In this document: piece after piece, positions 3,242 to 33,815 of the stretch
How positions within the stretch are numbered: position 1 is the first letter of the stretch
Layout of the letters: each line of letters begins with the position of its first letter
Source: a virus
Taxonomy: Duplodnaviria > Heunggongvirae > Uroviricota > Caudoviricetes
Virus record (IMG/VR): IMGVR_UViG_2563366858_000008
Reading direction: 5' to 3' (one strand)
Length of the DNA: 39,834 nt
The notes under the pieces: generated by a model
Seen by the model: only the letters and a program-made list of their open reading frames with translations
Told to the model about the DNA's origin: nothing
The model's database searches: none
Translations under genes and position numbers: made by a program

Positions 3242-5182
3242 ATGTCTTATTTAAAATACAGAACAGATATTGATGGGCTGCGAGCTATTGCGGTTTTGCT
3301 GGTCGTGCTGTACCACGCAAACTTTCCTATTCATGGTGGTTTTATTGGTGTAGATGTTTTTTTCGTCATATCAGGATATCTCATTACCAACATCATATAT
3401 AAAGAGACTAAAAGAAATATTTTTTCATTCCTTAATTTTTACAAACGTCGAATAAAGCGATTGCTCCCAGCTTTTGCTTTTCTTCTTTTATTTTTATTTG
3501 TTTACTGCAAATTATATTTGATGCCAGATGAACTTATATCATTCTCTAAAAGTGCGGTATACGCTCTTCTTGGCATAAGCAATTTCTATTTTTTTAGTGG
3601 CACAGGTTACTTTAACTCAACCTCTTATGAACCGCTTTTACACACATGGTCGCTTTCCGTTGAAGAGCAGTTCTACATTGTATGGCCTTTCATCGTTTTC
3701 ATGCTCGCTCGGAACTCAGGGACAAAAAAAGCAATAATAATATCCTCATTACTATTTATTGTATTCCTTGGTATTTCACAGTATGGAGCAGTTAATTATA
3801 AAACAGCAGCGTATCTCCTACTGCCTTTTAGGTTCTTTGAGTTGCTCTCAGGTGCCCTACTTGCTATCTATAAAGATTCAATAACAAAACATCTGCGCCA
3901 CGGTTCTGTAATTTCACTGGTCGGCGTAATGCTGATTGTGTTGAGTTCATTATTTATAAATTCTAACACGCCATTTCCTGGGTTCACTGTTTTGCCTACA
4001 TGTTTAGGCGCTGTAATGCTTATTGCTGCAGGTGACTCATCCAAAAACTTCATTTCTAAAGTGCTGTCTTTAACTCCAGTTGTTTATGTAGGAAGAATTT
4101 CCTACTCTCTTTATTTATGGCACTGGCCTGTACTGATTCTTGCTGAATACAGGGGGATCGATCTTACGGCCTTAAATGCGACGGCGCTCATACTTATCGC
4201 ATTCATCATGGCAAGCATAAGCTATCACTTCGTTGAAAAGCCATTTAGGAAGGATTCGCTGCAATATTTCAGGACTGCATTTATAACCATCTACCTGATA
4301 CCATTAATAGTATCCGCTGCCTATGCAGCGTACATTTTAAAAAATGATGGTTTTCGCGCCAAAAGTTCAGAGTTAGTATCTGAATTAGAAGAGAGAAACG
4401 CGACAAATATTATGCGCCCACAGTGTATTGATAAATTATTTATCGGTAATGTAAATGACTGTCATCTTGGCGTTAATAAAGGCGAAGTAGATGGCGTGCT
4501 TCTTGGTGACTCCTTTGGTAATGCATATGCTTACTTTATTGATGAACTTGCGAAAGATGCTGGAATATCAATAACAGATACTACATATAGCTCAACACCT
4601 GTAATATCAGGAATTTATGTGCAGGATATCAGGAATAAGATATCTGACATAGATGCTAACCTGATAATGACATATACAAAAAACAGGCTGGAGTATGCAG
4701 CAAAACAAAAGTTCGCGATAATTTCCGTTTTTTGGGATCAGTACGGGCCACAAAATAATTACTTCCGTATCTTCGATAAAAACGGTGACGTATCGGAGAA
4801 TGCTTACCAGTTGCAATCTGAAGCAATAAAATATCTGCTGTCCAATGGCGTGAAAGTTTACATCATTGCAAGACCTTACCAGTCTATTGGCCCTGCTGCG
4901 ATAAACAAACTGCGCCAAATTAAGCTGCGGCATGGGGATGTAACTACTGAAAAATATGAATACGGCGTAAAGAAAGATGATCGGATAGAATACAAGTTAA
5001 AGCAGGAGTTCCCTCAGATAACGCTAATCGATCCTAACGATGTACTTTGCCACAAAGGGGAATGTGATGCCATCGTGGATGGAAAGATCATTTTCAGAAC
5101 TGATGGTTCACACCTGAATGCTGTTGGAGCAAAAAAAATCGGGGAAGAGTATTTGAAAAACTACGCAAACCCATTTCGATAA
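3242..5182 (+). CDS. O-antigen O-acetyltransferase, acyltransferase-3 membrane domain plus SGNH domain (OafA/Oac-like); lysogenic conversion
   Basis: N-terminal multi-TM domain with conserved YRxDIDGLRAIAV...H motif; C-terminal GDSFG (SGNH) motif; 646 aa; AT-rich relative to neighbours. Confidence 0.85.
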   Translation: MSYLKYRTDIDGLRAIAVLLVVLYHANFPIHGGFIGVDVFFVISGYLITNIIYKETKRNIFSFLNFYKRRIKRLLPAFAFLLLFLFVYCKLYLMPDELISFSKSAVYALLGISNFYFFSGTGYFNSTSYEPLLHTWSLSVEEQFYIVWPFIVFMLARNSGTKKAIIISSLLFIVFLGISQYGAVNYKTAAYLLLPFRFFELLSGALLAIYKDSITKHLRHGSVISLVGVMLIVLSSLFINSNTPFPGFTVLPTCLGAVMLIAAGDSSKNFISKVLSLTPVVYVGRISYSLYLWHWPVLILAEYRGIDLTALNATALILIAFIMASISYHFVEKPFRKDSLQYFRTAFITIYLIPLIVSAAYAAYILKNDGFRAKSSELVSELEERNATNIMRPQCIDKLFIGNVNDCHLGVNKGEVDGVLLGDSFGNAYAYFIDELAKDAGISITDTTYSSTPVISGIYVQDIRNKISDIDANLIMTYTKNRLEYAAKQKFAIISVFWDQYGPQNNYFRIFDKNGDVSENAYQLQSEAIKYLLSNGVKVYIIARPYQSIGPAAINKLRQIKLRHGDVTTEKYEYGVKKDDRIEYKLKQEFPQITLIDPNDVLCHKGECDAIVDGKIIFRTDGSHLNAVGAKKIGEEYLKNYANPFR

Positions 5183-19963: not shown

Positions 19964-20401
19964 TTAACCAGTTACTTTTGAGCGGATCGGATACGGCGTA
20001 TTGGCATCAACATCAAGACTGATACCAGCAGTGAATTCGCCAGCCGTTAGCGGGCCAGTTGCGACGGAGTAGTTAACACGCAGATATCGCTGAACACCGG
20101 CAGGCACCTTTGCAGAAACAACTCGTTTACCTGCTGTCAGGGCGGTCTTTGCCAGTGCACCACTATCATAAATAGTGGTCCATGAGCTGTTATCATTACT
20201 CGTCTGCAACTGGATGTTTACAGTTGCATCACCGCTTGCTGCGGCAGCTGTGTTAACCAGCGCCCAAAACTCAAGCGGGTAACCCACGCCGATATCACGA
20301 CGTTTTCCGTCAATTGGACCGAGATCGATTACGTCAGTAGAAGCCGCGGTATTCGTAACCGCCTGAGCTTCGGAGAACATCAACAGTTTGTCGGTGATCA
20401 T
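19964..20401 (-). CDS. Head-associated structural protein
   Basis: 145 aa; GGAGAAAG RBS; immediately downstream of major capsid gene. Confidence 0.5.
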   Translation of the reverse strand: MITDKLLMFSEAQAVTNTAASTDVIDLGPIDGKRRDIGVGYPLEFWALVNTAAAASGDATVNIQLQTSNDNSSWTTIYDSGALAKTALTAGKRVVSAKVPAGVQRYLRVNYSVATGPLTAGEFTAGISLDVDANTPYPIRSKVTG

Positions 20402-20416
20402 CTTCTTTCTCCATTA

Positions 20417-20436
20417 GTGGGTCTGTTACGACCCAC
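20417..20436 (-). other. Stem-loop after the major capsid gene
   Basis: GTGGGTC-tgttac-GACCCAC, no U-tract; between capsid stop and next RBS. Confidence 0.35.
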
Positions 20437-20452
20437 AGGTTAATAACAGGCG

Positions 20453-21445
20453 TTACACCACGCGGGCTTCTGTTTCCAGAAGCGCATCAGTTTCACGGAT
20501 TGGTACACCACGGAATGACGTCCACCACTCGCCTTCTGTCTCTTTTACGCTGATCGCCAGAGATGTTTTCTCCAGAGATTGCAGATCAAGAGCCTGGCCT
20601 ACAGTGCGGTTCATGTAGAACACCGGGCGACCCATGCCACGATTTGGAATGCGATGCAGTGCTTTAACCATCAACTTCGCAATATTTGCGGCAGAGGAAG
20701 GTTCTGAAAGATTGCTGACATCGATGTTTGCAATGCGAACAACATAACGCCAGTCACGCAGAGCAAGTCCGTTGTCCCATTTGTAATGGGTACGGTAGCC
20801 TTCGTACTTGCCGCCATTCGCATCTTCCAGTGTCACCTGGCCTTTATCTTCCATCTGGATGCCAGCCTTCTGCCCTTTCGGGAAGATGCCATGCACGGTG
20901 TTTTCGCCCCACACCACTAACCAGATTGAGGTGTTATCTGTACCCGTGCCACCAGCATCAATGATGTTCTGAGCATTACCCGCAGACAGGCTGGAATAGC
21001 GGGAGGACAGTCCCATAAACTGCTGAGGGTTAACGCTGGAATCACCATAAAACAGTGTCTGCGCCATCTGCTGATTCATCGCTTCAATAAATGCGCGGTC
21101 TTCAGACAGGCGGAATTCGGCGGTATTACCGTTCAGATCAGCCAGTGACTTATCGACTTCAGCATAGGTTTCCAGCATGCCAACGGAATCGGTTACCTGC
21201 ACTGTGGTTGATTTGCTTGGCTGTACGCCATAGTTCAGCAAACGCCAGGTAGCTGAAGGTAAACCAGAACGAATGGTGGTTCGGTGTCCGGTAGGAAGGT
21301 TCCCTTCGACAAAAGGCATATCCTGAAGGATCGGGTTAGTTTGACCGAGAAGCTCGATAATCTTATCGACTTTCCCGTTTGGATCGACGCGCTTACCCCA
21401 GTCAGCCAGCGTTAGCGCAGTTAAGCCTTTAACAGCCATTGTCAT
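20453..21445 (-). CDS. Major capsid protein
   Basis: 330 aa; follows scaffold and portal in canonical head-gene order. Confidence 0.8.
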   Translation of the reverse strand: MTMAVKGLTALTLADWGKRVDPNGKVDKIIELLGQTNPILQDMPFVEGNLPTGHRTTIRSGLPSATWRLLNYGVQPSKSTTVQVTDSVGMLETYAEVDKSLADLNGNTAEFRLSEDRAFIEAMNQQMAQTLFYGDSSVNPQQFMGLSSRYSSLSAGNAQNIIDAGGTGTDNTSIWLVVWGENTVHGIFPKGQKAGIQMEDKGQVTLEDANGGKYEGYRTHYKWDNGLALRDWRYVVRIANIDVSNLSEPSSAANIAKLMVKALHRIPNRGMGRPVFYMNRTVGQALDLQSLEKTSLAISVKETEGEWWTSFRGVPIRETDALLETEARVV

Positions 21446-21453
21446 TTCCTCTC

Positions 21454-22149
21454 TTATTTGCCATAGAGCACTTCGGCCGCACTACGCTGGCCTTCATTAC
21501 CACCGGTGACCATGCCATCTTCAGACATCGCCTTTCCGATTTTCACGAACGTTTTGACCAGATCAGGGTGATTACCCAGCCCGGTGGTGTTCAGATATTC
21601 TTTGAGTTCAGGTGTCCCGAACTGGTCAAGCGCACGCTGTGCGGCGCTAAGGTTAGAAATCAACTTGTCGCCACCGATTTCTTTGTCAGCTTTTACATCA
21701 GCAGCCCACTGCTCGGTTGTTTTCTGCCAGGCTTCTGCCTGGCGCTGCTGCACACCTGCCAGAATCTTCGGATAAGCATCAACCAGCTTTTGCGCTTGCT
21801 CGTTGGTCAGGTTAAGTTCTCGCGCCACCGGCTCGAATTCCTTCAACGCTTCTGTATCCAGCTCTACGCCTTCGGCAGCCTGAAACTCGTACTTCTCAGG
21901 CGCACCCTCTGGTTTATCGCCGTCCTTTTTTTCATCCTGCTTATCGTTTTCAGGCTTTTTGTCATCAGCAGGTTTATCGCCATCAGCAACAGGTTGTGGC
22001 TTATCACCTTCCGATTGTGATGGATCACCAACTGGAGCAGGGTTATCACCTGCAGGCGCTGACGGTTCTGACGCAGCCGGAGCTGCTCCACCATCGACTG
22101 GTTGCTCATTGCAAAGACGGCGATACAGCAAACGCTCAAATAAATTCAT
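21454..22149 (-). CDS. Scaffolding protein
   Basis: Acidic, Pro/Ala-rich low-complexity N-terminal half and helical C-terminus; AGGAG RBS before ATG 22149 (track start 22155 is an in-frame GTG). Confidence 0.7.
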   Translation of the reverse strand: MNLFERLLYRRLCNEQPVDGGAAPAASEPSAPAGDNPAPVGDPSQSEGDKPQPVADGDKPADDKKPENDKQDEKKDGDKPEGAPEKYEFQAAEGVELDTEALKEFEPVARELNLTNEQAQKLVDAYPKILAGVQQRQAEAWQKTTEQWAADVKADKEIGGDKLISNLSAAQRALDQFGTPELKEYLNTTGLGNHPDLVKTFVKIGKAMSEDGMVTGGNEGQRSAAEVLYGK

Positions 22150-22151
22150 GA

Positions 22152-22448
22152 TCACTCCTGTTCACTGGCCTCTTTGGCCATCTTCAAATACTGTTCAGGG
22201 CAATGCGCCATAACGCGCTGAAACAGTTCCAGCGCCAGATTGCGTTGCCCCTCATTAAATGCCATAGCCATAGCGTCCATCGGTGAGATAGCAGAAAACA
22301 CACGGCCTTTCTCCAGCACCGACCAGACAACGCGACGCCCCTGTTCACTGCTCATGACAAAGCGAATGTCATCAATTTCACGCTGTGCCATGTCACGTTG
22401 CTTACGGGCGTTTTCTTCTTTCAGTTGATCGTCTTCGTAATCTGTCAT
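22152..22448 (-). CDS. Small head-assembly protein
   Basis: 98 aa; ATGA overlap with portal stop. Confidence 0.5.
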   Translation of the reverse strand: MTDYEDDQLKEENARKQRDMAQREIDDIRFVMSSEQGRRVVWSVLEKGRVFSAISPMDAMAMAFNEGQRNLALELFQRVMAHCPEQYLKMAKEASEQE

Positions 22449-24124
22449 TGTGATTGCCCACCCTGACCACTAACTGCATTCGCCATAGCTGACAAAACAC
22501 TCGGATCCGAAGTTTTAGCTTCGCTTAGCGTCTTGGCACCCTGTGCCGCCGCCATCCCCATCGCCATCATTTGTTGCTGCTGTTGCTGCTGTGCCCGTTG
22601 CTGGCGAGCCTGCTCAACCTGTTCCTGCGGAACAATGACGGTTGGAGACACTCCAGACATATCAGCGAATGCATCGATTGCCTGATCAACGTTGAGTTTG
22701 TCGAGAGCTTCTGGTTTCGCTTGCGCAAGTTGACCAATGAAGTTGACCGTAGACGCCAGACTGGACAGGCCGATAGACTTCTGCGCCTGAGCCATGACGG
22801 AAATGTATTCGACCTTCAGGGGCATACCTTCCATCGCGTCAGGCGGGGGCGGCAGCATGTTTTTACGCACCATCATCGAGAAAGCGCGGTCAATGAGAGG
22901 ATTAAGACATTCGTCGTTCAGACGCTCCAGAACCGGCCCCAACATCAGAAGTTTTTCTTCTTTCATTTCGATCACCGCTTCAACAGGCATCGAACGGGTA
23001 TTGATGTTCTGCAACATCATGAACAGATCGACAAAGTAGGCACTGTTAATGATTTGACGAGTGTCCTGAATGTCTGCCACCAGATCTGCTGTACTGGGGT
23101 TAACCAGATAAGCAGGCCTGAAACCATCCTGACCAGTAATCTGATCGATATACGTGATGTCGCCAGGAAGAAGGGAGGCGCGCTGATTCTTGAGGGAAGT
23201 CGGAGCAATCATCGGCGGATTGGTGGCTTTATCAATCAACTGCGACTTGCGCTTCTGGAGAAGCTGCAATGCCTTAACAGGTCCAAGCGCCAGCATACCC
23301 GGGCATGATGATCCATAAACATCTTCGCCGTTAACTTCCCAGCGCGGAGCCATAATTGGAAACTCATCGAATCCTGACTCACGCAACAACTTGTCGTTAT
23401 CACCGCCAACCTCGTAATAAACCGATTTGAATGGCTTGTTCTTGCTATCCAGCTTCGATGTATCGCGGTCAATGTTCGGGTAAACCGAATGCATCACTTC
23501 AATCCACTTCTCGTAGGTGCCGCTTTCCCACATGCTTTTTACGGATTCGCTGACGTTATTTAGCCCGAACTCCTGAACAAGCTGACGAACAGTCATAGAG
23601 AACTTGCGAAAACAGGTGTCCACACTGCCACGAGGTGAGTTAGCCAGGTAGTAACTGCCTATAGGGAATGGCATTGTGCGAATGATGTCCTCGTCATCCT
23701 CCAGCACCGCCATTGCACCAGTGCTGTATGTGCCGAGGCTTCCGTATAACTGCGGCAGCGACTGATAGAGATTCGACTTATTGAACATATCGTTCATGCG
23801 GTTCTGCACCGCCTCAAGCCACAACTTAACAGGGCCATAATCCATCATTTCAGGATCTGGCGTAGCCAGGCGAAACCACGGACGCGCGGGGCTTGTGATG
23901 CCTGACATCATGCCGCTGGCGAGAGTGCGCGCCGCCATAGTCCCGGTCGAATCAATAATGCGTGTATTCCGTCGATCGTTACGGTTGACCTCAGAAGTCA
24001 GAAAGCGGGAACCACGCGGGTTGATGTAATCACTCAACTCGCGCCAGTGCGGCTCGAACGACTGACGCTCGCTTTCAAGTTGTGCGAACTGTTTGTTCAA
24101 TCGCTCTTTAGTTGTTTCCGCCAT
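22445..24124 (-). CDS. Portal protein, podovirus head-to-tail connector type
   Basis: 559 aa; Gln-rich C-terminal tail (QQQQQQQMMAMGMAAAQ) as in T7 gp8-type connectors. Confidence 0.85.
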   Translation of the reverse strand: MAETTKERLNKQFAQLESERQSFEPHWRELSDYINPRGSRFLTSEVNRNDRRNTRIIDSTGTMAARTLASGMMSGITSPARPWFRLATPDPEMMDYGPVKLWLEAVQNRMNDMFNKSNLYQSLPQLYGSLGTYSTGAMAVLEDDEDIIRTMPFPIGSYYLANSPRGSVDTCFRKFSMTVRQLVQEFGLNNVSESVKSMWESGTYEKWIEVMHSVYPNIDRDTSKLDSKNKPFKSVYYEVGGDNDKLLRESGFDEFPIMAPRWEVNGEDVYGSSCPGMLALGPVKALQLLQKRKSQLIDKATNPPMIAPTSLKNQRASLLPGDITYIDQITGQDGFRPAYLVNPSTADLVADIQDTRQIINSAYFVDLFMMLQNINTRSMPVEAVIEMKEEKLLMLGPVLERLNDECLNPLIDRAFSMMVRKNMLPPPPDAMEGMPLKVEYISVMAQAQKSIGLSSLASTVNFIGQLAQAKPEALDKLNVDQAIDAFADMSGVSPTVIVPQEQVEQARQQRAQQQQQQQMMAMGMAAAQGAKTLSEAKTSDPSVLSAMANAVSGQGGQSQ

Positions 24125-24138
24125 TTCAATGACTCCGG

Positions 24139-24345
24139 TTACTGACCAAGCAGCGTTTTACCGCTGGCATTAGCGGTTGATGTGTCGCCCTGAGAACCGG
24201 TAAGCAGCGTAGAACTACGACCAGCAGCAGCGCGACGGCGACGTGTTTCTTCGTCGCGGGCATCAACAACGGCGGCATCCTGCTCCTGTGGTGCTGCCTG
24301 AACTTCTGGTGTTGCAGGCACTGATGGTGAGCTACCCATGCACAT
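24139..24345 (-). CDS. Small protein upstream of portal
   Basis: GGAG RBS 9 nt upstream of ATG; 68 aa, Ala/Arg-rich. Confidence 0.45.
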   Translation of the reverse strand: MCMGSSPSVPATPEVQAAPQEQDAAVVDARDEETRRRRAAAGRSSTLLTGSQGDTSTANASGKTLLGQ

Positions 24346-24413
24346 ATCAATGACTCCGTACGCAATTAAATTATTACCAATTTAACCACATATGATTTAT
24401 TTATCGTAGATAG

Positions 24414-24419
24414 TTGACA
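24414..24419 (+). promoter_or_regulatory. TTGACA -35-like hexamer upstream of the tRNA; -10 unclear
   Basis: Consensus -35 located 16 bp before the operator-like repeat at 24436. Confidence 0.35.
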
Positions 24420-24435
24420 TTTAACGCACAAATTA

Positions 24436-24450
24436 TTACCTTTAAGGTAA
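24436..24450. promoter_or_regulatory. Operator-like inverted repeat TTACCTTTAAGGTAA (perfect)
   Basis: Perfect TTACC-N5-GGTAA in the noncoding region upstream of the tRNA. Confidence 0.6.
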
Positions 24451-24772
24451 CCAAAGAGTTCATTCCGGTTACTAACCTGACTGGCTTGTCGTTAAATTGA
24501 ACAGGTGGAGTGAGCTTTTATTTTGAGCAGTACGGCGTATGGCACATGCGCCGATAGCGGTCTGGATACGTTTAAGGGGCACCCTCCCTTGCTCGGGCAA
24601 ACGAACCAGGTAGCCGGAATGTGCAAGTCGAGCGGTTTTATTCCGCGCACGGGGATTCACCATCCCGGCGATTCGGTGTGACGCCTCGGAAGAGACGAGG
24701 GTACAACGATGAGAGCATTTATGGAGCCGCGACAAAGTGTGGTGCCTTAACAGGCTAAGTGCTCTCAGCGTT

Positions 24773-24849
24773 GTGGCATTAGCTCAGTTGGACAGAGCAA
24801 CCGCCTTCTAAGCGGTTGGTCGCAGGTTCGAATCCTGCATGCCACGCCA
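24773..24849 (+). tRNA. tRNA-Arg (anticodon UCU), phage-encoded
   Basis: Full cloverleaf: acceptor GTGGCAT/ATGCCAC, D-arm GCTC/GAGC, anticodon stem ACCGC/GCGGT with loop CTTCTAA, T-arm GCAGG-TTCGAAT-CCTGC, discriminator G and encoded CCA. Confidence 0.95.
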
Positions 24850-24892
24850 GAATCACGCATAAGGACCGTGATGCCAGAAGTTCCAGGGGCTT

Positions 24893-24934
24893 GGCGGTGA
24901 TGGTTTCCCTTGAAGGACTATCACCGCCCTTTTT
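24893..24934 (+). terminator. Intrinsic terminator after the tRNA
   Basis: 9-bp stem GGCGGTGAT/ATCACCGCC followed by CTTTTT. Confidence 0.7.
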
Positions 24935-25012
24935 ACAGCAGGACGCCATTGCGATGACTTCATGCTGTAAACCAGTACAGCCACGGAAGGCATAACTCAT
25001 TGCTTCCAGTTC

Positions 25013-25036
25013 GCCCGGTTCGCCGGGCATTTTTTT
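25013..25036 (+). terminator. Terminator-like hairpin in the 5' leader of the 25053 gene
   Basis: GCCCGG-ttcg-CCGGGC followed by ATTTTTTT; RBS AAGGTGAG directly after. Confidence 0.6.
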
Positions 25037-25052
25037 AAGGTGAGATTAGACT

Positions 25053-25424
25053 ATGAGTGACAAAGACATTGAATCTGAAATTCAGGCTAAAGGTTTAGCC
25101 GCGCCGCGCGTTACGCCAGACCATATCGAGAGCATTATTGCTCAGGAGGCATATTTCACAGCAGAAGATGGTGTCTTTGGCGTAGCCATAAAAGCGAAAC
25201 ATACTGGCGGAGAGGTAAACTACCAGCCGCACGAATCACTTTCTCTGCTGACGTTCTGCGTTCTGGTGCTGCGCAACGGCTTCACCGTCACCGGAGAGAG
25301 CGCCTGTGCAAGCCCGGAAAACTTTGATGCGGAAATTGGTCGGAAGATTGCCCGGCAGAATGCTGTAAACAAAATCTGGATGCTTGAAGGTTACTTGCTG
25401 AAGCAGAAGTTAAGCGAGCAATAA
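25053..25424 (+). CDS. Moron protein of unknown function, co-located with the tRNA
   Basis: AAGGTGAG RBS; 123 aa; opposite strand to flanking terminase and portal genes. Confidence 0.65.
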   Translation: MSDKDIESEIQAKGLAAPRVTPDHIESIIAQEAYFTAEDGVFGVAIKAKHTGGEVNYQPHESLSLLTFCVLVLRNGFTVTGESACASPENFDAEIGRKIARQNAVNKIWMLEGYLLKQKLSEQ

Positions 25425-25428
25425 CACC

Positions 25429-25440
25429 GTGACATGTCAC
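25429..25440. repeat. 12-bp perfect palindrome GTGACATGTCAC, copy 2
   Basis: 4 bp after the stop of the 25053 gene, immediately before a terminator. Confidence 0.8.
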
Positions 25441-25444
25441 AAAC

Positions 25445-25471
25445 AGCCAGCCGATGAGCTGGCTTTGTTTT
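25445..25471 (+). terminator. Intrinsic terminator
   Basis: AGCCAGC-cgatga-GCTGGCT followed by TTGTTTTAT. Confidence 0.7.
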
Positions 25472-25514
25472 ATCCTCACCAGAGGATATCTCCGTCATTA
25501 TCCCCGCTAACGGA

Positions 25515-26990
25515 TTAAGCATAGGGATCGTAATCTATAATGGCCTTGCCTTGCTGGTTCTGCTGCCCGGGAATTCGCAGACGCTTAGACACAGGGAACG
25601 CAAACGTCAGCAGTAGCGCATCGCCTTTACCCGGCGAACGCCCAAGCCGCTCCTTGATATCTTCCTTCGGTTCGATAACGATTTTACCGTCCACTCGAAC
25701 TTTGTACTCTGCCGCCGACAGGTCGTCCGCTGTTTCCTGGTCATCCAGCATGCCGCCCAGCCTCAGCCATGTCTTGCATGAGTTGAACATCTCCCCACGC
25801 TTGTTGAGCATCTGCGGGTCAGTAGACGCGCCACCGAACGGAACAAGTTGCCATGTGCGCCCCCAACCGTCACCGATTGACTTCAGCCCGGTACCGTAAC
25901 CGAAGTCGATGAACACCGCGTCAGCCTGATACTGGTCTTCAAAGTCAGCGATACGCTTTGCCATAATCAGATCGTCAGTGGTCTTGTTGCCGGTCCACAG
26001 CACCTTACTGTGCAGCCCCTGCCGCAGGTATATCACCGCGTCATCAACACCGGAGTATGCAGGGTCAACGCCGATTATCACCGGAGCATGTGCCACCTGC
26101 GCAGCAGTTACCACCCGTTTCATTGCCTCGTCAGTAAGACCGGTAGGGATAAACTGCAATTCAGATGCATCCGGGAATATGCCGCGCACACGGATTTTAA
26201 CGAAGTCGCTGTCTTCCCCGTAGTCATCAACCCATTTCTGCAACTGCTGTTTGTTAGTGCCTTCCACCGTCCGGCTGTCAATCTGCGCAGTTTTCCAGCG
26301 GTGTTTATATTTGCGGAAACATTCGCGGAAACGCCCGGTGTTACGTGTAGGGTTTCCGAATGCCACCCAGATAATCTCAGTGTCTTCGTCCGTCAGCGCC
26401 CCCTCAGCAACTTCCCACACCAGATCCGCAATGTTCGACGCTTCATCGAATACCACGATGATGCGTTTGCGCTCGTTGTGTAGTCCGGCGAATGCCTCAG
26501 TGTTGTGCTCAGACCAGGGTATTGCGTCAGCCCGCCACCGCTTGTCGTGCCCTGGGTCATTGCTGTACATCGCGGTAGCGGTACAGGTAAACCAGTCTTT
26601 CGTGATAGCAAGGTTCGACCACTTGATAATTTCCGGCCAGGTCTTCGTTCGTAGCTGGTTGTCGGTGTTGGCGGTCACCACGACCTTACAATCCTCGCAA
26701 GTGGACATGCCCCAGTTGATCAGCATTGAGATAAATGCGGATTTACCAATACCGTGACCAGAAGCGCGTGCCAGCATAAGCGGCTGATAGCGCGTCTCCG
26801 GATTCTGCAGGTGATCACGTATCTCTCGGAACGCATCAGCCTGCCACTGACGTGGGCCGGTAGCATGTGCCAGTTCAGTCCCCTCTTCCCCCCACGGGAA
26901 CGCATAGAGGGCATAGCCAAGCGGATCGTGAGTGAACCCTGCAATATCCTCGATCAACTGCTCTTCAGGAGATAACGCTGTATCTGTCAC
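25515..26990 (-). CDS. Terminase large subunit
   Basis: 491 aa; N-terminal ATPase region with P-loop-like GHGIGKS and C-terminal nuclease-like region; ATGA overlap with small subunit. Confidence 0.9.
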   Translation of the reverse strand: MTDTALSPEEQLIEDIAGFTHDPLGYALYAFPWGEEGTELAHATGPRQWQADAFREIRDHLQNPETRYQPLMLARASGHGIGKSAFISMLINWGMSTCEDCKVVVTANTDNQLRTKTWPEIIKWSNLAITKDWFTCTATAMYSNDPGHDKRWRADAIPWSEHNTEAFAGLHNERKRIIVVFDEASNIADLVWEVAEGALTDEDTEIIWVAFGNPTRNTGRFRECFRKYKHRWKTAQIDSRTVEGTNKQQLQKWVDDYGEDSDFVKIRVRGIFPDASELQFIPTGLTDEAMKRVVTAAQVAHAPVIIGVDPAYSGVDDAVIYLRQGLHSKVLWTGNKTTDDLIMAKRIADFEDQYQADAVFIDFGYGTGLKSIGDGWGRTWQLVPFGGASTDPQMLNKRGEMFNSCKTWLRLGGMLDDQETADDLSAAEYKVRVDGKIVIEPKEDIKERLGRSPGKGDALLLTFAFPVSKRLRIPGQQNQQGKAIIDYDPYA

Positions 26991-27583
26991 TGATTGCCAT
27001 CCTGACGTTCTTTCAGTCTCTTCCTGGCTGCCGCTATGCGATCAGCAATTGTCACATTCACATTAACATCCAGGCGTTCTTTGAACGCGTTGACATCAAC
27101 ATGCTTACCAATCAGCTCAAGGTTCTTCACCTTGTCAGGCCATTTAATTTTTTTGAGGATTGTCTCTATCGAATCCTCGTTCATGTTCATGATGGTCGAT
27201 GACAGATCAAAGCCACTAAGCGTAGTGCGCCAGATTTTCGGCCACTCACGGATTGGTTTAAGGCTCCCATCGTCGTTGAGGATATCGATCACGTCCATCT
27301 GGTCGATCTCCACCAGGCGCATGAGAACGTAATCAGCACTGACGCGCATTCGTTTGTTGCGCTCCTCCATCAACTCGGCAATCCGTTTTTGAATGCGTAC
27401 ATCGCGCATCATGACACTGGCTTTAACTGCCGCTGTATTTGGGGAGAACCCTGCGTTAATCGCTGCCTGAGTCTGGTTTTCAGGCGTTTTGATGTATGAC
27501 TGGCAATAAGCCTCCTGCATTGCTGTGAGCGGCTTAAATTGCGTTGATTTGCGTTTATAGGTTTTAGGTTCAGCAGGCATCAT
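26987..27583 (-). CDS. Terminase small subunit
   Basis: Start MMPAEPK at ATG 27583 (the track's N-terminal extension to 27661 crosses a terminator and operator repeats); motif QEAYCQSYIKT...AAINAGFS typical of small subunits. Confidence 0.75.
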   Translation of the reverse strand: MMPAEPKTYKRKSTQFKPLTAMQEAYCQSYIKTPENQTQAAINAGFSPNTAAVKASVMMRDVRIQKRIAELMEERNKRMRVSADYVLMRLVEIDQMDVIDILNDDGSLKPIREWPKIWRTTLSGFDLSSTIMNMNEDSIETILKKIKWPDKVKNLELIGKHVDVNAFKERLDVNVNVTIADRIAAARKRLKERQDGNQ

Positions 27584-27597
27584 AACCACCGTGGTAA
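27583..27597. promoter_or_regulatory. Operator-like repeat TAACCACCGTGGTAA (1 mismatch), overlapping terS start
   Basis: Adjacent to the perfect copy at 27601; 18 bp centre-to-centre. Confidence 0.45.
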
Positions 27598-27600
27598 TAG

Positions 27601-27615
27601 TTACCGTTGTGGTAA
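27601..27615. promoter_or_regulatory. Operator-like inverted repeat TTACCGTTGTGGTAA (perfect)
   Basis: Between the late-leader terminator and the terS start codon. Confidence 0.6.
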
Positions 27616-27622
27616 TAGTACC

Positions 27623-27652
27623 ATGCAAAATAAAGCCGCCATAGTTGGCGGC
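27623..27652 (-). terminator. Intrinsic terminator immediately upstream of the terminase genes (tR'-like)
   Basis: GCCGCC-aactat-GGCGGC followed by TTTATTTTG on the minus strand. Confidence 0.65.
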
Positions 27653-27657
27653 AGTAT

Positions 27658-27870
27658 TCAAAGTCCATCAAATTCATCGTAAAAACTCTCGTCAAGATAC
27701 CCTTCCCATTTACCGCGAATGAAAATTACATCCTCGCCGCAAGGGTGCTGACTGTCGATAACTATATCCCTCCTGGCGCAACCATACTTATGCATGAGAA
27801 ATTTAACCTCTTTCGGAAAATTTGCTGAGTTATCTCTCATATCTTCAAGGTCGTAGCGTATTTTTGGCAT
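27658..27870 (-). CDS. Small protein of unknown function
   Basis: Start MPKIRYD at ATG 27870 with GAAGGTG RBS; 70 aa; the track start at 27891 is a GTG inside the palindrome. Confidence 0.5.
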   Translation of the reverse strand: MPKIRYDLEDMRDNSANFPKEVKFLMHKYGCARRDIVIDSQHPCGEDVIFIRGKWEGYLDESFYDEFDGL

Positions 27871-27879
27871 AACACCTTC

Positions 27880-27891
27880 GTGACATGTCAC
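27880..27891. repeat. 12-bp perfect palindrome GTGACATGTCAC, copy 3
   Basis: Contains the TGA stop of the 27888..28226 gene and abuts the RBS of the 27658..27870 gene. Confidence 0.8.
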
Positions 27892-28226
27892 ACTATTAAT
27901 TTTGTTTCATGCCAGCCTTTAGTCACCCAGCATTGCGAGTCACCATTGCACGGGCATGAATTAACTGGAACTCTCTCGCCGCACTTACCGCAACGTTTTC
28001 TGCTGATCGATTTTATACGCCCGCGCACGCGTGCATCATCCTGGCGGATCAGTAACGCTATATACTCACCAAATTCGTAAGGCACACGCCCGGGGCGACG
28101 CGTGGCGCAGTTCCGCTCCAGCATTTCAATTTCCTGAGCATCAAGCACAATCTCCAGCTTACGTACACCGGATGCAGCTTGTCTGGCTCTCTGAGCGGCT
28201 TTGCGCTCTGCTGCTGATTTAGCCAT
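27888..28226 (-). CDS. Zinc-ribbon protein (candidate late-gene regulator)
   Basis: Start MAKSAAERK at ATG 28226 (in-frame ATG 28232 and GTG 28238 upstream); C-terminal CGKCG...CPCNG four-Cys motif; last regulatory-sized gene before the late-operon terminator. Confidence 0.5.
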   Translation of the reverse strand: MAKSAAERKAAQRARQAASGVRKLEIVLDAQEIEMLERNCATRRPGRVPYEFGEYIALLIRQDDARVRGRIKSISRKRCGKCGERVPVNSCPCNGDSQCWVTKGWHETKLIV

Positions 28227-28311
28227 TACCATATCCACCCAATTTCACCAGACATAATTCTCGCAATCACTATCATAACCAAAGTGATAATCACAACTTT
28301 AACTGGCGGCA

Positions 28312-29259
28312 TTATTCACCATCCTGCTCAGGCGGTTCTGGCAGCGGCATCCAGTGTGATGGAATCCACGACGCACCAGGAATTATCCAACCATCATTAG
28401 CGTCAGGATGTCCCGGTATGTAAGTCGCCCATTTCATTCGCCAGTCACCTTTCCTGTCAAACTCCACGGCAACAAGAACGGCTGTTTTGGTATCCGGCAT
28501 TCGCTCACTACAGCTTATCCAACCATCCGGAGTTACCGGATAGTTGCCAGCCAGTCTACGCAAAACAGCCTTAACAGCCTCAATACGGTCATCATCGCAA
28601 TTTTCCAGCGTATCTATGCGGTCGAGCATGATGATTGCGTTATCAATATCAGGATTGCCGGTCCACTCATTACCGCGATTGGATTCGGCAGCCTGGTTGC
28701 CACGTACTGGTTGATTCTCGGCTTTACCCTGTCTGTCGTCGCTGCATGAATGCCCTTCCAGCCAGACCAGTGCTTGTCGCATGAAATACGCAATATGCTT
28801 GCCGTGGTAATCGTCTTCATCGATGTGAAAAGCGATACTGCGGATATATTCAATTGCGTTTTCAATGGCCTCTAACGCTATCGGTGCTGGCGGAGTGGTA
28901 TATAGTTTTCGACATTTGTTTATCCAACCGGCATGGTCAGGCGTGTCTGTAAAGCGCAAATCGTCTTCGTAGCCCTCACGACTACGTTCTTTCCATTCCG
29001 TCCACGGAACACCGCTATTCCAAGTGGGGCGAGTGCAGGACTGATACAGAACAGGCTCTGCTTCCAGCGATGCCAGCACAATTCGTGCCAGCTCACGCAC
29101 TACTTCCGGGGGCGCGTAACGGTCATTCAGGTCATCCCACAGGCGTAGCATGTTATCGCTACTAGGGTGAACATCCTCGTTAGTTCCGGCAAGCGCACTA
29201 ATAACCTCATCGGCTGCCTCAATAATTTTCAGAGCTTGTTCTCTGGTAATAGTGGTCAT
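28312..29259 (-). CDS. DUF551-type phage protein
   Basis: 315 aa; C-terminal WMPLPEPP motif typical of DUF551 (recalled); ATGA overlap with upstream gene. Confidence 0.55.
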   Translation of the reverse strand: MTTITREQALKIIEAADEVISALAGTNEDVHPSSDNMLRLWDDLNDRYAPPEVVRELARIVLASLEAEPVLYQSCTRPTWNSGVPWTEWKERSREGYEDDLRFTDTPDHAGWINKCRKLYTTPPAPIALEAIENAIEYIRSIAFHIDEDDYHGKHIAYFMRQALVWLEGHSCSDDRQGKAENQPVRGNQAAESNRGNEWTGNPDIDNAIIMLDRIDTLENCDDDRIEAVKAVLRRLAGNYPVTPDGWISCSERMPDTKTAVLVAVEFDRKGDWRMKWATYIPGHPDANDGWIIPGASWIPSHWMPLPEPPEQDGE

Positions 29260-29771
29260 GCCGCGTTTCCTTCTTTCTTATTAACAATTACACCGTCATA
29301 TATTTCATTAAGGTGCCCTCTCAACTCCATGCGCCTTAATGCAGATAACATGTAATCGCATTCAACCTGCTTATTTCCAGTAAATGGCTTATCGTCAGGA
29401 TTACCCCAACAGCAATTACCCTTGGGCCACCCATGTACTTTCCGTACTCTTCCGTTAACAACGTGAAGTAATCCCCAGCCAGGTGGTAAATCCTCAATTG
29501 AAATAATTCCCGGCTCACTAATAAAGAATCGCCAGTCGCCCATTCCAAGAGACGGATTTTTACGAAAACGCTTTTTTCTATCTGCCAACAAGTCAGCACG
29601 AGAACATTTCGCCTCTATCAGGCATGATGCTGAATTTCTGAATCCCATAGCATCTGGCTGTTCTCCGGTACTGGTTACAGCTATAAAGCGGTCATGAAAA
29701 CAAACCTTGAACCCGTTGCGCTTAAGGAACTTGTACGCAATCTGACAGAGTTCGCGGTGTGTTAACGCCAT
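29256..29771 (-). CDS. PD-(D/E)xK nuclease-like protein
   Basis: Start MALTHRELC at ATG 29771; motif PDAMGF...CLIEAKC resembles a PD-(D/E)xK catalytic core. Confidence 0.45.
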   Translation of the reverse strand: MALTHRELCQIAYKFLKRNGFKVCFHDRFIAVTSTGEQPDAMGFRNSASCLIEAKCSRADLLADRKKRFRKNPSLGMGDWRFFISEPGIISIEDLPPGWGLLHVVNGRVRKVHGWPKGNCCWGNPDDKPFTGNKQVECDYMLSALRRMELRGHLNEIYDGVIVNKKEGNAA

Positions 29772-29772
29772 A

Positions 29773-30405
29773 TCACTCTCCTTTGATGCGAATGCCAGCG
29801 GCGCGTGGCACATTAACTTCCACGATGCGCACAGTTGGTTTGTACATCTCAATCGCTGTCAGCCAGTCAGCGCCAGTCATGCGCTTTTCTGCATCGCCAT
29901 TAGTCCACTTAACCGGTACACCAATAGCCTTCATCGCGATTTCTATTTCCCCGGCAATGGCGCTTTTTCCGCAACCAGTAAAACCAGAAACAACGACAAG
30001 AACTTCACCTTTGGCTGGTTTTATTTCCCGTGCTTCCAGTTCAGCAATACGCTTACTCCCATCCGAGATAACACCTTCGTAATACTCGCGTTGCTCGTTG
30101 AGTTTTGATTTTGCTTCCTCAAGCTCAACACGCAGTTTCCCTACCGTTAGCGCAATATCCTCGTTCTCCTGATCGCGGCGTTTTATGTATTGCTGGTTTC
30201 TTTCCCGTTCATCCAGCAGCGCCAGCACGGTTTCTGGTCCGGCCAGAAATTTGAAGGCGTTGAGCGCATCAATATCCACACCGTAATCTTTAAGTTCCTG
30301 TTCACTTAACAAATCATCATCAGATGGCAACATTAACAGGCGTTCCATTGCTGGAATTGCACGTTCCGCCACCTCACGCAGTGCCTGGTAATTAATTTCG
30401 CTCAC
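29773..30405 (-). CDS. Ea22-like early protein with C-terminal P-loop-like motif
   Basis: N-terminus MSEINYQALREVAE resembles ead/Ea22-like proteins (recalled); C-terminal VVVSGFTGCGKS is Walker-A-like. Confidence 0.5.
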   Translation of the reverse strand: MSEINYQALREVAERAIPAMERLLMLPSDDDLLSEQELKDYGVDIDALNAFKFLAGPETVLALLDERERNQQYIKRRDQENEDIALTVGKLRVELEEAKSKLNEQREYYEGVISDGSKRIAELEAREIKPAKGEVLVVVSGFTGCGKSAIAGEIEIAMKAIGVPVKWTNGDAEKRMTGADWLTAIEMYKPTVRIVEVNVPRAAGIRIKGE

Positions 30406-31022
30406 TGGTTGCCTCCTTTGCGAAGCTGGGCAGCAAAGTCAACTAACCACTCAGTCATTTCAACCTTCCCTACCAGGTCTGAACCAGGGTGCATACAGCA
30501 ATCACTCTGCGCCGCTTTGAAATCCTTATACTCATATTCTTGGGCCACCAGATTTTTTGCAGCTTCTATAGCAGCATCCACCCCCTGCGCCCGTACTTCA
30601 GCCAGAAAAGCATCGGTGGCTGGGGTGTCAACACGGATACTGTCGCGCAAGATGAAAAATGCATTGAGCATCCCAGTCTCCGGCACTTCATCCTGATACT
30701 TCTCATACGCATCAAGAGCCTTCATCATCTCAGGTCCGAATGGTTGAGGGTGCGCAGCCTTCAGCGCCGCATTCTCCGCTGCCAACGCCGAAAACTTCTC
30801 GTGTGCCAACTTAACAGCCGCATCAGCCTGCTTAATTGACTCAATCGCGCTCTGGTGGTCTTCGGCCAGCGCATTAGCACGCACCAGTTGCACTTCCAGT
30901 TGCGTTGCCAAATCGCTGAGCAGCTTTGCCACACTGCGCATATCAACGGCACCACATTCAGCTTTCAGTTCCGAAGCCATCTCATGCCCGGCGGCAACTA
31001 ACCCTTTGATATTACTTTCCAT
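30402..31022 (-). CDS. Hypothetical early protein
   Basis: 206 aa; ATGA overlap with downstream gene. Confidence 0.5.
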   Translation of the reverse strand: MESNIKGLVAAGHEMASELKAECGAVDMRSVAKLLSDLATQLEVQLVRANALAEDHQSAIESIKQADAAVKLAHEKFSALAAENAALKAAHPQPFGPEMMKALDAYEKYQDEVPETGMLNAFFILRDSIRVDTPATDAFLAEVRAQGVDAAIEAAKNLVAQEYEYKDFKAAQSDCCMHPGSDLVGKVEMTEWLVDFAAQLRKGGNQ

Positions 31023-31431: not shown

Positions 31432-31446
31432 TTACCTCTAAGGTAA
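31432..31446. promoter_or_regulatory. Operator-like inverted repeat TTACCTCTAAGGTAA (perfect)
   Basis: Overlaps RBS/leader of the 31084..31428 gene. Confidence 0.6.
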
Positions 31447-33800: not shown

Positions 33801-33815
33801 TCACCCATAAGGTAA
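33801..33815. promoter_or_regulatory. Operator site TCACCCATAAGGTAA (1 mismatch)
   Basis: First of three sites in the cro/cI intergenic region. Confidence 0.55.

Follow-up and report, generated by a model that had tools for sequence, protein, structure and literature searches.

Why does a prophage keep, between two of its head and packaging genes and on the strand opposite to both, several hundred nucleotides (nt) that encode no protein? The question is raised by IMG/VR record IMGVR_UViG_2563366858_000008 (hereafter the window, meaning the whole 39,834-nt stretch of DNA that was analysed), which on sequence similarity is a Uetakevirus (phiV10/epsilon15-like) prophage of Escherichia coli; phage phiV10 is 99.3% identical to it over 24300-25520, O157 typing phages 9 and 10 are equally close, and the whole cassette considered here was found in 223 complete E. 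coli genomes. A first-pass annotation had described this cassette as a plus-strand tRNA-Arg(UCU) with a long structured leader, tandem terminators and a 123-aa 'moron' gene. All of these elements were recovered on the plus strand at the coordinates listed below, with 407 nt of noncoding sequence from the start of a 68-aa gene (24345) to the tRNA. The tRNA and the 123-aa gene are of known kinds; the new part is the RNA family in the leader.

The leader holds a conserved RNA core. A covariance model (R1), built from 31 diverse homologous cores, recovers one full-length copy in the window and one per related locus, two in the lambdoid locus L025 (L numbers are our labels for loci), and only a remnant in phage epsilon15. 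The core and what follows it are listed below; H1, P2, the invariant stretch, P4, the pseudoknot and P5 are taken from the alignment of the 31 cores.

24527-24704, plus strand: conserved RNA core (R1, 143.5 bits, E 1.5e-42)
24533-24540 with 24546-24553, plus strand: helix H1
24561-24564 with 24607-24610, plus strand: helix P2, capped by a variable hairpin
24609-24627, plus strand: invariant single-stranded stretch GGUAGCCGGAAUGUGCAAG
Between the invariant stretch and P4, plus strand: P3, a variable hairpin
24652-24655 with 24663-24666, plus strand: helix P4
24658-24661 (CACC, in the P4 loop) with 24675-24678 (GGUG), plus strand: pseudoknot
24684-24688 with 24696-24700, plus strand: helix P5, with a GAAGAGA loop
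24704-24775, plus strand: 3' domain, with a closing helix of CAACGAUGAGAGCA (24704-24717) and UGCUCUCAGCGUUG (24760-24773) around a variable insert
24773-24849, plus strand: tRNA-Arg, anticodon UCU, CCA encoded (ARAGORN; Rfam RF00005; RefSeq annotation)

The case for this structure rests on the comparison of homologues, since the fold of the leader as a single sequence is only modestly better than that of its shuffles (z -2.0). Across the 31 cores, 94.3% of the alignment cells of the proposed pairs were paired, compared with 26-47% when the partners were slid by 1-3 columns, and 12 pairs carried changes on both sides. The covariation score was 0.257, against 0.120 for shuffled alignments, and none of 500 shuffles reached the observed value. 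The core comprises four covarying helices and the pseudoknot, with frequent G-U pairs that place the RNA on the plus strand. Invariant unpaired stretches (AGCGGUC, GGUAGCCGGAAUGUGCAAG and GGCG) separate the helices; the 18-mer GTAGCCGGAATGTGCAAG inside GGUAGCCGGAAUGUGCAAG is invariant by construction, the homologues having been collected with it. RNAalifold preferred to pair the H1 loop (GGCACA) with UGUGC in the invariant stretch, which would make a second pseudoknot; the columns concerned are invariant in the set, partly through collection with the 18-mer, and the sole variant (UUUGC, in L151) does not covary. Beyond the core, the closing helix of the 3' domain (~14 bp) formed in each of the 14 sequence variants examined (-19 to -32 kcal/mol), with many compensatory differences, and it extends into the tRNA by 1-3 nt.

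Two resemblances were noted within these domains. The variable insert of the 3' domain (equivalent to 24718-24759 in the window) carries in L102 and L151 a tRNA T-arm-like sequence, GGTTCGATTCC, with a flanking stem; ARAGORN called no tRNA in either insert. Both AAUGUGCAAGUCGAGCGG (24609-24632, the invariant stretch and the start of P3) and GGCACAUGC in the H1 loop (24541-24549) resemble the 5' region of E. coli 16S rRNA (ACACAUGCAAGUCGAACGG). Only UGCAAG(U/C)C of that 16S-like sequence is conserved across the RNA family, and the resemblance may be due to chance.

A sensitive search of phage genomes with the leader (24366-24775) returned 88 records, extending beyond the Uetakeviruses, and the core was 70-84% identical in unrelated phages. 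Its carriers include P1-like phage-plasmids (P1, P7, D6, SJ46 and RCS47), lambdoid phages (mEp460, cdtI and the Shiga toxin (Stx) 2c- and Stx2a-converting phages) and phages of Klebsiella, Enterobacter, Salmonella and Stenotrophomonas. A search of IMG/VR with the 18-mer GTAGCCGGAATGTGCAAG matched at least 120 contigs, and among the matches listed there were 107 distinct copies in 38 clusters (95% identity). The core (at least 80% coverage) was present in 1,817 of 5,426 complete E. coli genomes, with up to four copies per genome and 554 plasmid sites. A loose gapped-pattern scan of genome contigs gave 120 matches, eight of which passed a motif filter and six of which look genuine (two Kosakonia, two Phytobacter, E. 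whittamii and Superficieibacter); the evidence for the taxonomic breadth of the core comes from the phage, IMG/VR and E. coli collections.

In the complete E. coli genomes, the Prokaryotic Genome Annotation Pipeline had placed no annotation under the core, and other depositors had annotated either nothing or an open reading frame (ORF; PhiV10p04, mEp460_037). None of the 4,227 models of Rfam 15 matched 24366-24772 at E values up to 10, the tRNA being the only match in the window at gathering thresholds, and the mEp460, P1 and Kosakonia copies of the core had no Rfam match either. No description of the element was found in the searchable literature, by sequence strings or by topic. These comparisons indicate that the core is a widespread, horizontally mobile structured RNA family with no known description in the searchable literature. 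The first-pass annotation was right that the leader is structured, as the R1 match and the covariation attest, and needs revising in that the structure is a discrete mobile RNA family, not merely the leader of a tRNA.

It is quite improbable that the core is an ordinary structured tRNA leader (a processing, stability or simple attenuation hairpin) with no function of its own. In the window it abuts and would be co-transcribed with the tRNA, into whose nt 1-3 the closing helix extends, and the P1 copy lies just behind the tRNA gene trnI. However, 27 of the 37 cluster representatives scanned had no tRNA in the fetched locus, about nine having one next to the core, and the conservation across phage families goes far beyond what a leader would need. 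The idea of a plain tRNA leader is largely refuted by the many copies with no tRNA nearby.

The features upstream of the core in the window are as follows.

24414-24442, plus strand: putative sigma-70 promoter (-35 TTGACA at 24414-24419, 17-nt spacer, -10 TACCTT at 24437-24442)
24436-24450, no strand assigned: operator-like palindrome TTACCTTTAAGGTAA, of the motif TTACC-N5-GGTAA, overlapping the -10 and the predicted start
24451-24526, plus strand: 5' leader domain, with a long-range helix of AAAGAGUUCAUUCC and GGAGUGAGCUUUU around small hairpins (-22.9 kcal/mol, z -2.4)

The transcription start of the cassette is predicted near 24449. The TTGACA-17-TACCTT layout recurs in the Uetakevirus-type loci L066, L073 and L122, and the 5' leader domain is kept in loci of this type only; the 3' strand of its helix resembles the 3' strand of the closing helix beyond the core. 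The TTACC-N5-GGTAA motif, allowing up to 3 mismatches, occurs 19 times in the window compared with 0.62 expected. Copies near 33801, 33849, 34561 and 34623 flank the helix-turn-helix repressor gene of the prophage, with a cro-like gene nearby, and the equivalent epsilon15 site was annotated by its depositors as 'repressor; lysogeny'. Because its promoter carries the operator of the prophage repressor, we infer that the cassette is an early unit that would be kept silent in the lysogen. Further motif copies lie at 31432, 31494 and 33464, beyond the OR-/OL-like positions; one operator copy stands between replication gene P and a DUF1064 gene, and one after the cro-like gene. The distribution of the motif suggests several repressor-controlled promoters in this prophage.

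The lambdoid immunity region is the context of 19 of 44 cluster representatives. The order there is cro (minus strand), cI (plus strand), the cI terminator, a promoter whose surroundings share 9-mers with OR, the core and then the plus-strand early-left genes. The core starts between a few and ~60 nt past the promoter, or later where sequence has been inserted, at the position of nutL/putL near the 5' end of the early-left transcript. The first genes behind it are those of PHROG 204 (unknown function), YfdQ-/YfdR-like genes or xis-int, and no N-like gene was found in the lambdoid carriers examined (mEp460, the Stx2c phage and the O104:H4 prophage). The P1 core belongs to the C1-controlled ban operon, where it is preceded by trnI at a distance of 15 nt and followed by ban at ~100 nt. 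Core orientation always follows the local direction of transcription, and the location behind a repressor-controlled promoter in three backbones argues that the RNA belongs to the early transcript.

Other elements accompany the core in these backbones. In L023, L096, L151 and L189, a second conserved noncoding block (CATCAACAGCGAACAGGCAGGACGCCCACGAAGTAGCCGCC..GGCGTATGAAGATGGGGATGATTCGCG) lies between the pL-like promoter and the core. Many lambdoid copies (among them L004, which is mEp460, at 2738-2875, and L204, upstream of the core) have GUGGUGAAU behind the closing helix, then a covarying hairpin of 4-5 bp, and UCACCACAAC stands ~125-150 nt beyond GUGGUGAAU in a 10-bp long-range pairing (L004 2738-2747 with 2863-2872). 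This element looks tRNA-shaped, with acceptor-like ends and a D-arm-like hairpin, and occupies the position held in the window by the tRNA-Arg; the Rfam tRNA model did not match it, and exact 7-nt acceptor-like pairing was found in 8 of 100 copies. In the ban operon of P1, the stretch between upl and tciA contains, at L003 1558-1677, a sub-threshold match to the Rfam small RNA STnc100 (33.4 bits, gathering score 47, E 6.6e-5).

What the early polymerase would meet beyond the core and the tRNA is a series of terminator-like hairpins and a gene. The scan and the folding energies bear out the three hairpins (T1, T2 and T3), all of which have, by sequence and fold, the GC-rich hairpin and following U tract of intrinsic terminators.

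24893-24934, plus strand: T1, a 14-bp hairpin GGCGGUGAUGGUUU...AGGACUAUCACCGCC (24893-24928) followed by CUUUUU (-22.8 kcal/mol, z -5.0)
24935-25012, plus strand: T1-T2 spacer, with small hairpins, conserved and of fixed length (fold z -1.3, not distinctive)
25013-25036, plus strand: T2, hairpin GCCCGGUUCGCCGGGC (25013-25028) followed by AUUUUUUU, a U7 tract (-12.7 kcal/mol)
25053-25424 (from 25037 with the Shine-Dalgarno sequence AAGGUGAG), plus strand: 123-aa gene, ATG at 25053, Acb4 family (PF13876)
25445-25472, no strand assigned: T3, hairpin (25445-25464) followed by UUGUUUU, between the convergent acb4-like and terminase genes

T3 folds on both strands (-12.8 and -14.3 kcal/mol), its minus-strand tail being only GUUUGUG, a weak U tract; the depositors of phiV10 annotated it as the terminase terminator. 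T1 and T2 had been taken for terminators attached to the tRNA and the gene. They are real as hairpins, but they are not just that, being conserved parts of the module in unrelated phages. T1-like hairpins, in which the base (GGCGGU..ACCGCC) is conserved, the upper stem covaries and the tail is CUUUUUACA, lie downstream of 65 of 100 distinct cores (within 900 nt, same strand), compared with 0 on the reverse complement. For T2-like hairpins (GCCC..GGGC followed by U5-8) the corresponding counts are 33 of 100 and 3. In loci with both hairpins, the start of T2 lies 106-129 nt beyond T1; 27 distinct T1-T2 units were aligned, and covarying versions of T2 occur in other loci (GCCCACUUCGGUGGGC, GCCCGCCCCGUGCGGGC and GCCCGGGCGCCCCGGGC).

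The distance from the core to T1 ranges from ~200 to 550 nt and can hold a whole tRNA or other inserts. This spacing bears on the notion that the core is a ligand-sensing riboswitch, deciding whether transcription stops at T1/T2 according to a host metabolite or an immune signal. Conserved unpaired nucleotides in a pseudoknotted fold, with terminators downstream, would suit such an RNA; however, a riboswitch is made unlikely by the variable distance, and no expression platform overlaps the core. Moreover, the P1-type copies have no terminator, the downstream genes (xis-int, ban, sponges, YfdQ-like) are functionally unrelated, and no known class matched in Rfam at E values up to 10. The combination of an aptamer, an overlapping platform and related genes that marks a riboswitch was not found here, and we regard this explanation as highly unlikely.

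T2 is followed directly by AAGGTGAG and the ATG at 25053, a position in which its hairpin might act by classical attenuation. Across loci, a conserved AAGGUGAGAUU-AUG stands directly behind T2, and homology ends at the start codon, where the cargo is exchanged. This slot holds Acb4-family genes in the window, L024 and L099, a Tad2-like gene (PF11195, E 4e-26) in a Klebsiella phage, and several proteins of unknown function elsewhere; in L041, a P1-like variant, a Tad2-like gene lies directly behind the core. No convincing promoter was found between T1 and the cargo, so that the cargo mRNA must pass both T1 and T2. In a scan of the early-left operon of mEp460, no strong terminator other than T1 was found, which makes T1 the main barrier there.

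Cargo exchange at fixed junctions beside conserved sequence could also be read as the mark of a DNA-level element, namely a recombination (cargo-exchange) or protein-binding site. In epsilon15 (L005 2230-2440, compared with window 24556-24934), the promoter, operator and H1 are kept, and the rest of the core and the tRNA are gone. The junction falls in a UUCCCUUGAUGCU motif common to the P2 hairpin loop and the T1 loop, which suggests a deletion between the two similar loops that would also have removed the 5' half of T1; a deletion between two UUCCCUUGAUGCU copies would fit a DNA element. The depositors' ORFs across the core (mEp460_037 and PhiV10p04) would in turn fit a small protein gene. 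Against both stand the compensatory changes that keep the pairs and the G-U pairs, which work on one strand only; the constant orientation with local transcription is at odds with a DNA element. No reading frame across the core is open in more than 12 of the 31 homologues, and the lengths are not multiples of three, so the core was rejected as a protein gene. The chance that the conservation reflects either a DNA element or a protein gene appears very slight.

Our preferred reading, held tentatively and with rather less than even confidence, is that the core is a cis-acting antitermination RNA that would carry polymerase through T1 and T2. We infer the start, timing, repression, termination, read-through, processing and RNA activity in the cassette from its sequence, as follows. 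After infection or induction, host RNA polymerase would start near 24449 and transcribe the 5' leader domain, the pseudoknotted core, the 3' helix and the tRNA-Arg(UCU), before meeting the conserved intrinsic terminators T1 and T2. The nascent core would then act in cis on the polymerase, leading to read-through of T1, T2 and later terminators, and the ribosome-binding site next to T2 would drive the swappable cargo, here an Acb4-family sponge predicted to sequester the cyclic dinucleotides of the cyclic oligonucleotide-based antiphage signalling system (CBASS). Cleavage by RNase P at the 5' end of the tRNA would release the core RNA. Antitermination in cis is favoured because the core is promoter-proximal and orientation-locked, and because two conserved strong terminators stand before a conserved ribosome-binding site. 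It is also favoured by the lambdoid carriers examined, which have no N, and by L090 and L124, in which xis and int lie directly behind the core and T1.

Several observations weigh against antitermination in cis. The proposed promoter has a perfect -35 and a weak -10, with 3 of 6 consensus positions, and was for that reason missed by a consensus promoter scan, which called no promoter in the cassette region. L066 and L102 carry core, T1 and T2 but no cargo, the convergent terminase gene coming next. The P1-type copies have neither a 3' domain nor a terminator before the next gene, and only about half of the lambdoid clusters have a strong terminator within 700 nt. Epsilon15 has lost the core and kept T2 with its gp49-like gene, so that read-through of T2 cannot strictly need the core. 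In L025 (minus strand), two full-length cores (4803-4963 and 3996-4158) lie ~800 nt apart in a lambdoid locus. Finally, the core RNA is more than twice the size of the put RNAs, the known cis-acting antiterminators of HK022 and HK639, and is unrelated to them.

With the exception of the promoter and the comparison with put, these points favour a processed, trans-acting RNA, a reading that we consider possible and less probable than antitermination in cis. The core would in this case be a stand-alone noncoding RNA with its own early promoter, ended by T1/T2 and trimmed by RNase P, whose target would be a factor of the host or of a defence system; it would serve as decoy, sponge or inhibitor, and leaky read-through would suffice for the downstream gene. 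Complete modules with no downstream gene on the same strand (L066, L102), the movement of the module as a unit between unrelated phage backbones, and the long invariant unpaired stretches, which are typical of a binding surface, would all be consistent with it. The tandem copies of L025 suggest dosage of a trans-acting product, and the neighbours with anti-defence functions (Acb4 and Tad2-like), the tRNA directly behind the core in the window and the acceptor-like paired element of some lambdoids point in the same direction. However, the lambdoid core is the 5' leader of a long protein-coding operon and not a unit of its own, the P1 copy has no terminator of its own, and no partner was identified; furthermore, the tRNA-like lambdoid element is not backed by the Rfam tRNA model, with exact pairing in only 8 of 100 copies. 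In the first L025 copy, the 3' helix strand has been lost to an AT-rich insert with an opposite-strand ORF of ~166 aa.

A more specific proposal is that the core is an immune-evasion RNA, a structured phage RNA that would appear within the first minutes of infection and disarm a bacterial defence. It could act as a decoy, drawing off a defence nuclease or sensor directed at RNA or tRNA, or as an aptamer-type sponge for a nucleotide immune signal. We consider this proposal unlikely; if it were true, RNA, tRNA and protein sponge would all be anti-defence parts of one cassette.

For the 123-aa gene, the label 'moron' was apt in that it appears to be a separately acquired accessory gene, but it belongs to a known family. 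A profile search matched its product to Pfam PF13876 over the whole profile (1-82 of 82) at 121.3 bits (cut-off 27; E 2.4e-35), which places it in this family, known as 'N4 gp49 / Sf6 gp66'; the RefSeq name is 'Gp49 family protein'. The Bacillus phage SPO1 protein Acb4 belongs to PF13876; in the study that determined its structure (PDB entry 9e4w), the 1,331 members of PF13876 are treated as a family of viral sponges named after Acb4, and each of the eight homologues assayed bound 3'3'-cyclic GMP-AMP (3'3'-cGAMP) (PMC11722364). An Acb4 sponge is by definition a tetramer that binds cyclic dinucleotides and blocks CBASS. The relation between the two proteins is distant: PDB entry 9e4w, 'anti-CBASS 4 (Acb4)', was matched at E 0.007, and phmmer gave 20 bits to SPO1 Acb4. 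The contacts of 3'3'-cGAMP in SPO1 Acb4 are K36, F48, E49, V56, Y57, F62, N63, I66, T70 and K81 (PMC11722364). In the alignment, the ENFxxEIGR motif is kept and F48, F62 and I66 are identical, in contrast to E49 (T), V56 (C), Y57 (A), N63 (D) and T70 (I); K36 and K81 fall outside the aligned stretch. Because the guanine-reading E49 is a threonine here, ligand preference may differ from that of SPO1 Acb4. The gene is best named an Acb4-family anti-CBASS sponge, with binding of cyclic dinucleotides as a prediction. No match to the 123-aa protein, or to the neighbouring 68-aa protein, was found in the PADLOC library.

The tRNA-Arg(UCU) is a good tRNA both by ARAGORN and by the Rfam scan, in which RF00005 matched at 73.3 bits (gathering score 29; E 2.4e-14), in agreement with the first-pass annotation. 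That annotation had also assigned it to decoding AGA and AGG, which make up only about 1.5-3 per 1000 codons in E. coli. AGA (6.0 per 1000) and AGG (4.9 per 1000) together reach ~11 per 1000 over the ORFs of the window, several-fold above the E. coli level, which makes a decoder role plausible. An argument from late genes is qualified by the head and packaging genes (19964-26990), which contain almost no AGA/AGG. AGA/AGG reach up to 20-50 per 1000 in tail, injection and early genes.

The genes around the cassette are the following, as identified from the ORF list and RefSeq, with PHROGs/Pfam for terminase and portal.

25515-26990, minus strand: terminase large subunit
24139-24345, minus strand: 68-aa gene
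22445-24124, minus strand: portal

The RefSeq annotation of a 99.9% identical prophage gives the same picture: the small and large terminase subunits on the minus strand, then tRNA-Arg and the 'Gp49 family protein' on the plus strand, then a 68-aa protein, portal, protease and major capsid protein, again on the minus strand. The assignments of terminase to phrog_2 (PHROGs) and of portal to PF12236 (Pfam) agree with the RefSeq naming. The cassette is thus confirmed to run opposite to the packaging and head genes, convergent with terminase and divergent from the 68-aa and portal genes. Late transcripts from the terminase genes may cross the cassette antisense, as the first-pass annotation proposed; a scan of the cassette region found no terminator-like site on the minus strand. 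ORFs, some possible and some deposited (24779-25030 and 24472-24735, both minus strand, PhiV10p04 and mEp460_037), overlap one or other of the core, the tRNA, T1 and T2 in antisense. Since the opposite strand is constrained as RNA there, such ORFs probably reflect annotation errors.

These results place a complex conserved RNA, so far unannotated, in P1, in Stx-converting and O104:H4 prophages and in about one-third of complete E. coli genomes, as part of what is transcribed first in the phage programme. If the core is an antiterminator, it would represent a second, structurally unrelated class of protein-independent antitermination RNA and would explain how the early-left operon is expressed in the N-less lambdoids examined; if it works in trans, phages would have in it a new tool for use against their host. 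The slot behind T2 holds Acb4- and Tad2-like sponges, and other cargo found there provides good candidates for new anti-defence genes. For annotation, deposited ORFs such as PhiV10p04 and mEp460_037 are probably spurious.

Among known systems, the closest parallel by position is provided by the put RNAs of HK022 and HK639, which are cis-acting, protein-independent antiterminators downstream of pL in N-less lambdoids (PMC9378689). Like them, the core lies just behind a repressor-controlled early promoter, is orientation-locked and has terminators downstream on the same strand; this is a resemblance of function, not membership. The put RNAs consist of ~70 nt in two stem-loops and promote read-through by binding the zinc-binding domain of the beta' subunit of RNA polymerase, whereas the core has 152-184 nt with at least four helices, a pseudoknot and a 3' domain, also occurs outside lambdoids and sometimes with no downstream gene, and has antitermination only as a proposed activity. 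With filters off, R1 found nothing above noise in the HK639 stretch that holds an annotated putL-like RNA, nor in HK022 23000-31000, which is taken to hold putL/putR (put not being annotated there). Size, fold and these searches lead us to reject the core as a put RNA.

The core also stands where nutL does in the lambda N/nut system, at the beginning of the early-left transcript, and invites comparison with rrn boxA. The 3' strand of the closing helix is often UGCUCUUU followed by a GU-rich run; this resembles boxA and boxC, as a resemblance only. Likewise CAGUGCUCUUUCCGUUGUGG (24757-24776, in many loci) and the Uetakevirus leader sequence GGAGUGCGCUUUCAGGUGUGU (24508-24526) resemble the rrn/lambda boxA UGCUCUUUAACAA and the GU-rich boxC. 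In contrast to lambda, no N-like gene was seen in the carriers examined, and the boxA-like strand is base-paired and covarying, so that it is unlikely to be single-stranded.

The P1/P7 c4 and P4 CI RNAs (Rfam C4) are likewise phage RNAs cut from an early leader. Such cutting would apply to the core by established RNase P biology, as the tRNA that directly follows would let RNase P set its 3' end. Those RNAs are, however, antisense regulators of ~70-80 nt with known targets, whereas the core has no Rfam match and no complementarity to a target was identified for it. The Stx phage tRNA morons ileZ-argN-argO offer a parallel for the tRNA, being phage-borne and including a tRNA-Arg(UCU) that reads AGA/AGG, which are rare in E. 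coli. The tRNA of the window differs in its setting, flanked by a conserved RNA on one side and conserved terminators on the other within an early cassette rather than a late operon, and in a phage whose most highly expressed genes, the head genes, avoid AGA/AGG. Finally, GOLLD and ROOL are complex conserved phage and prophage RNAs of unknown function, often beside tRNA genes as the core is here. Compared with them, the core is much smaller, has no Rfam match, occurs mainly in Enterobacterales and keeps to fixed, promoter-proximal early positions.

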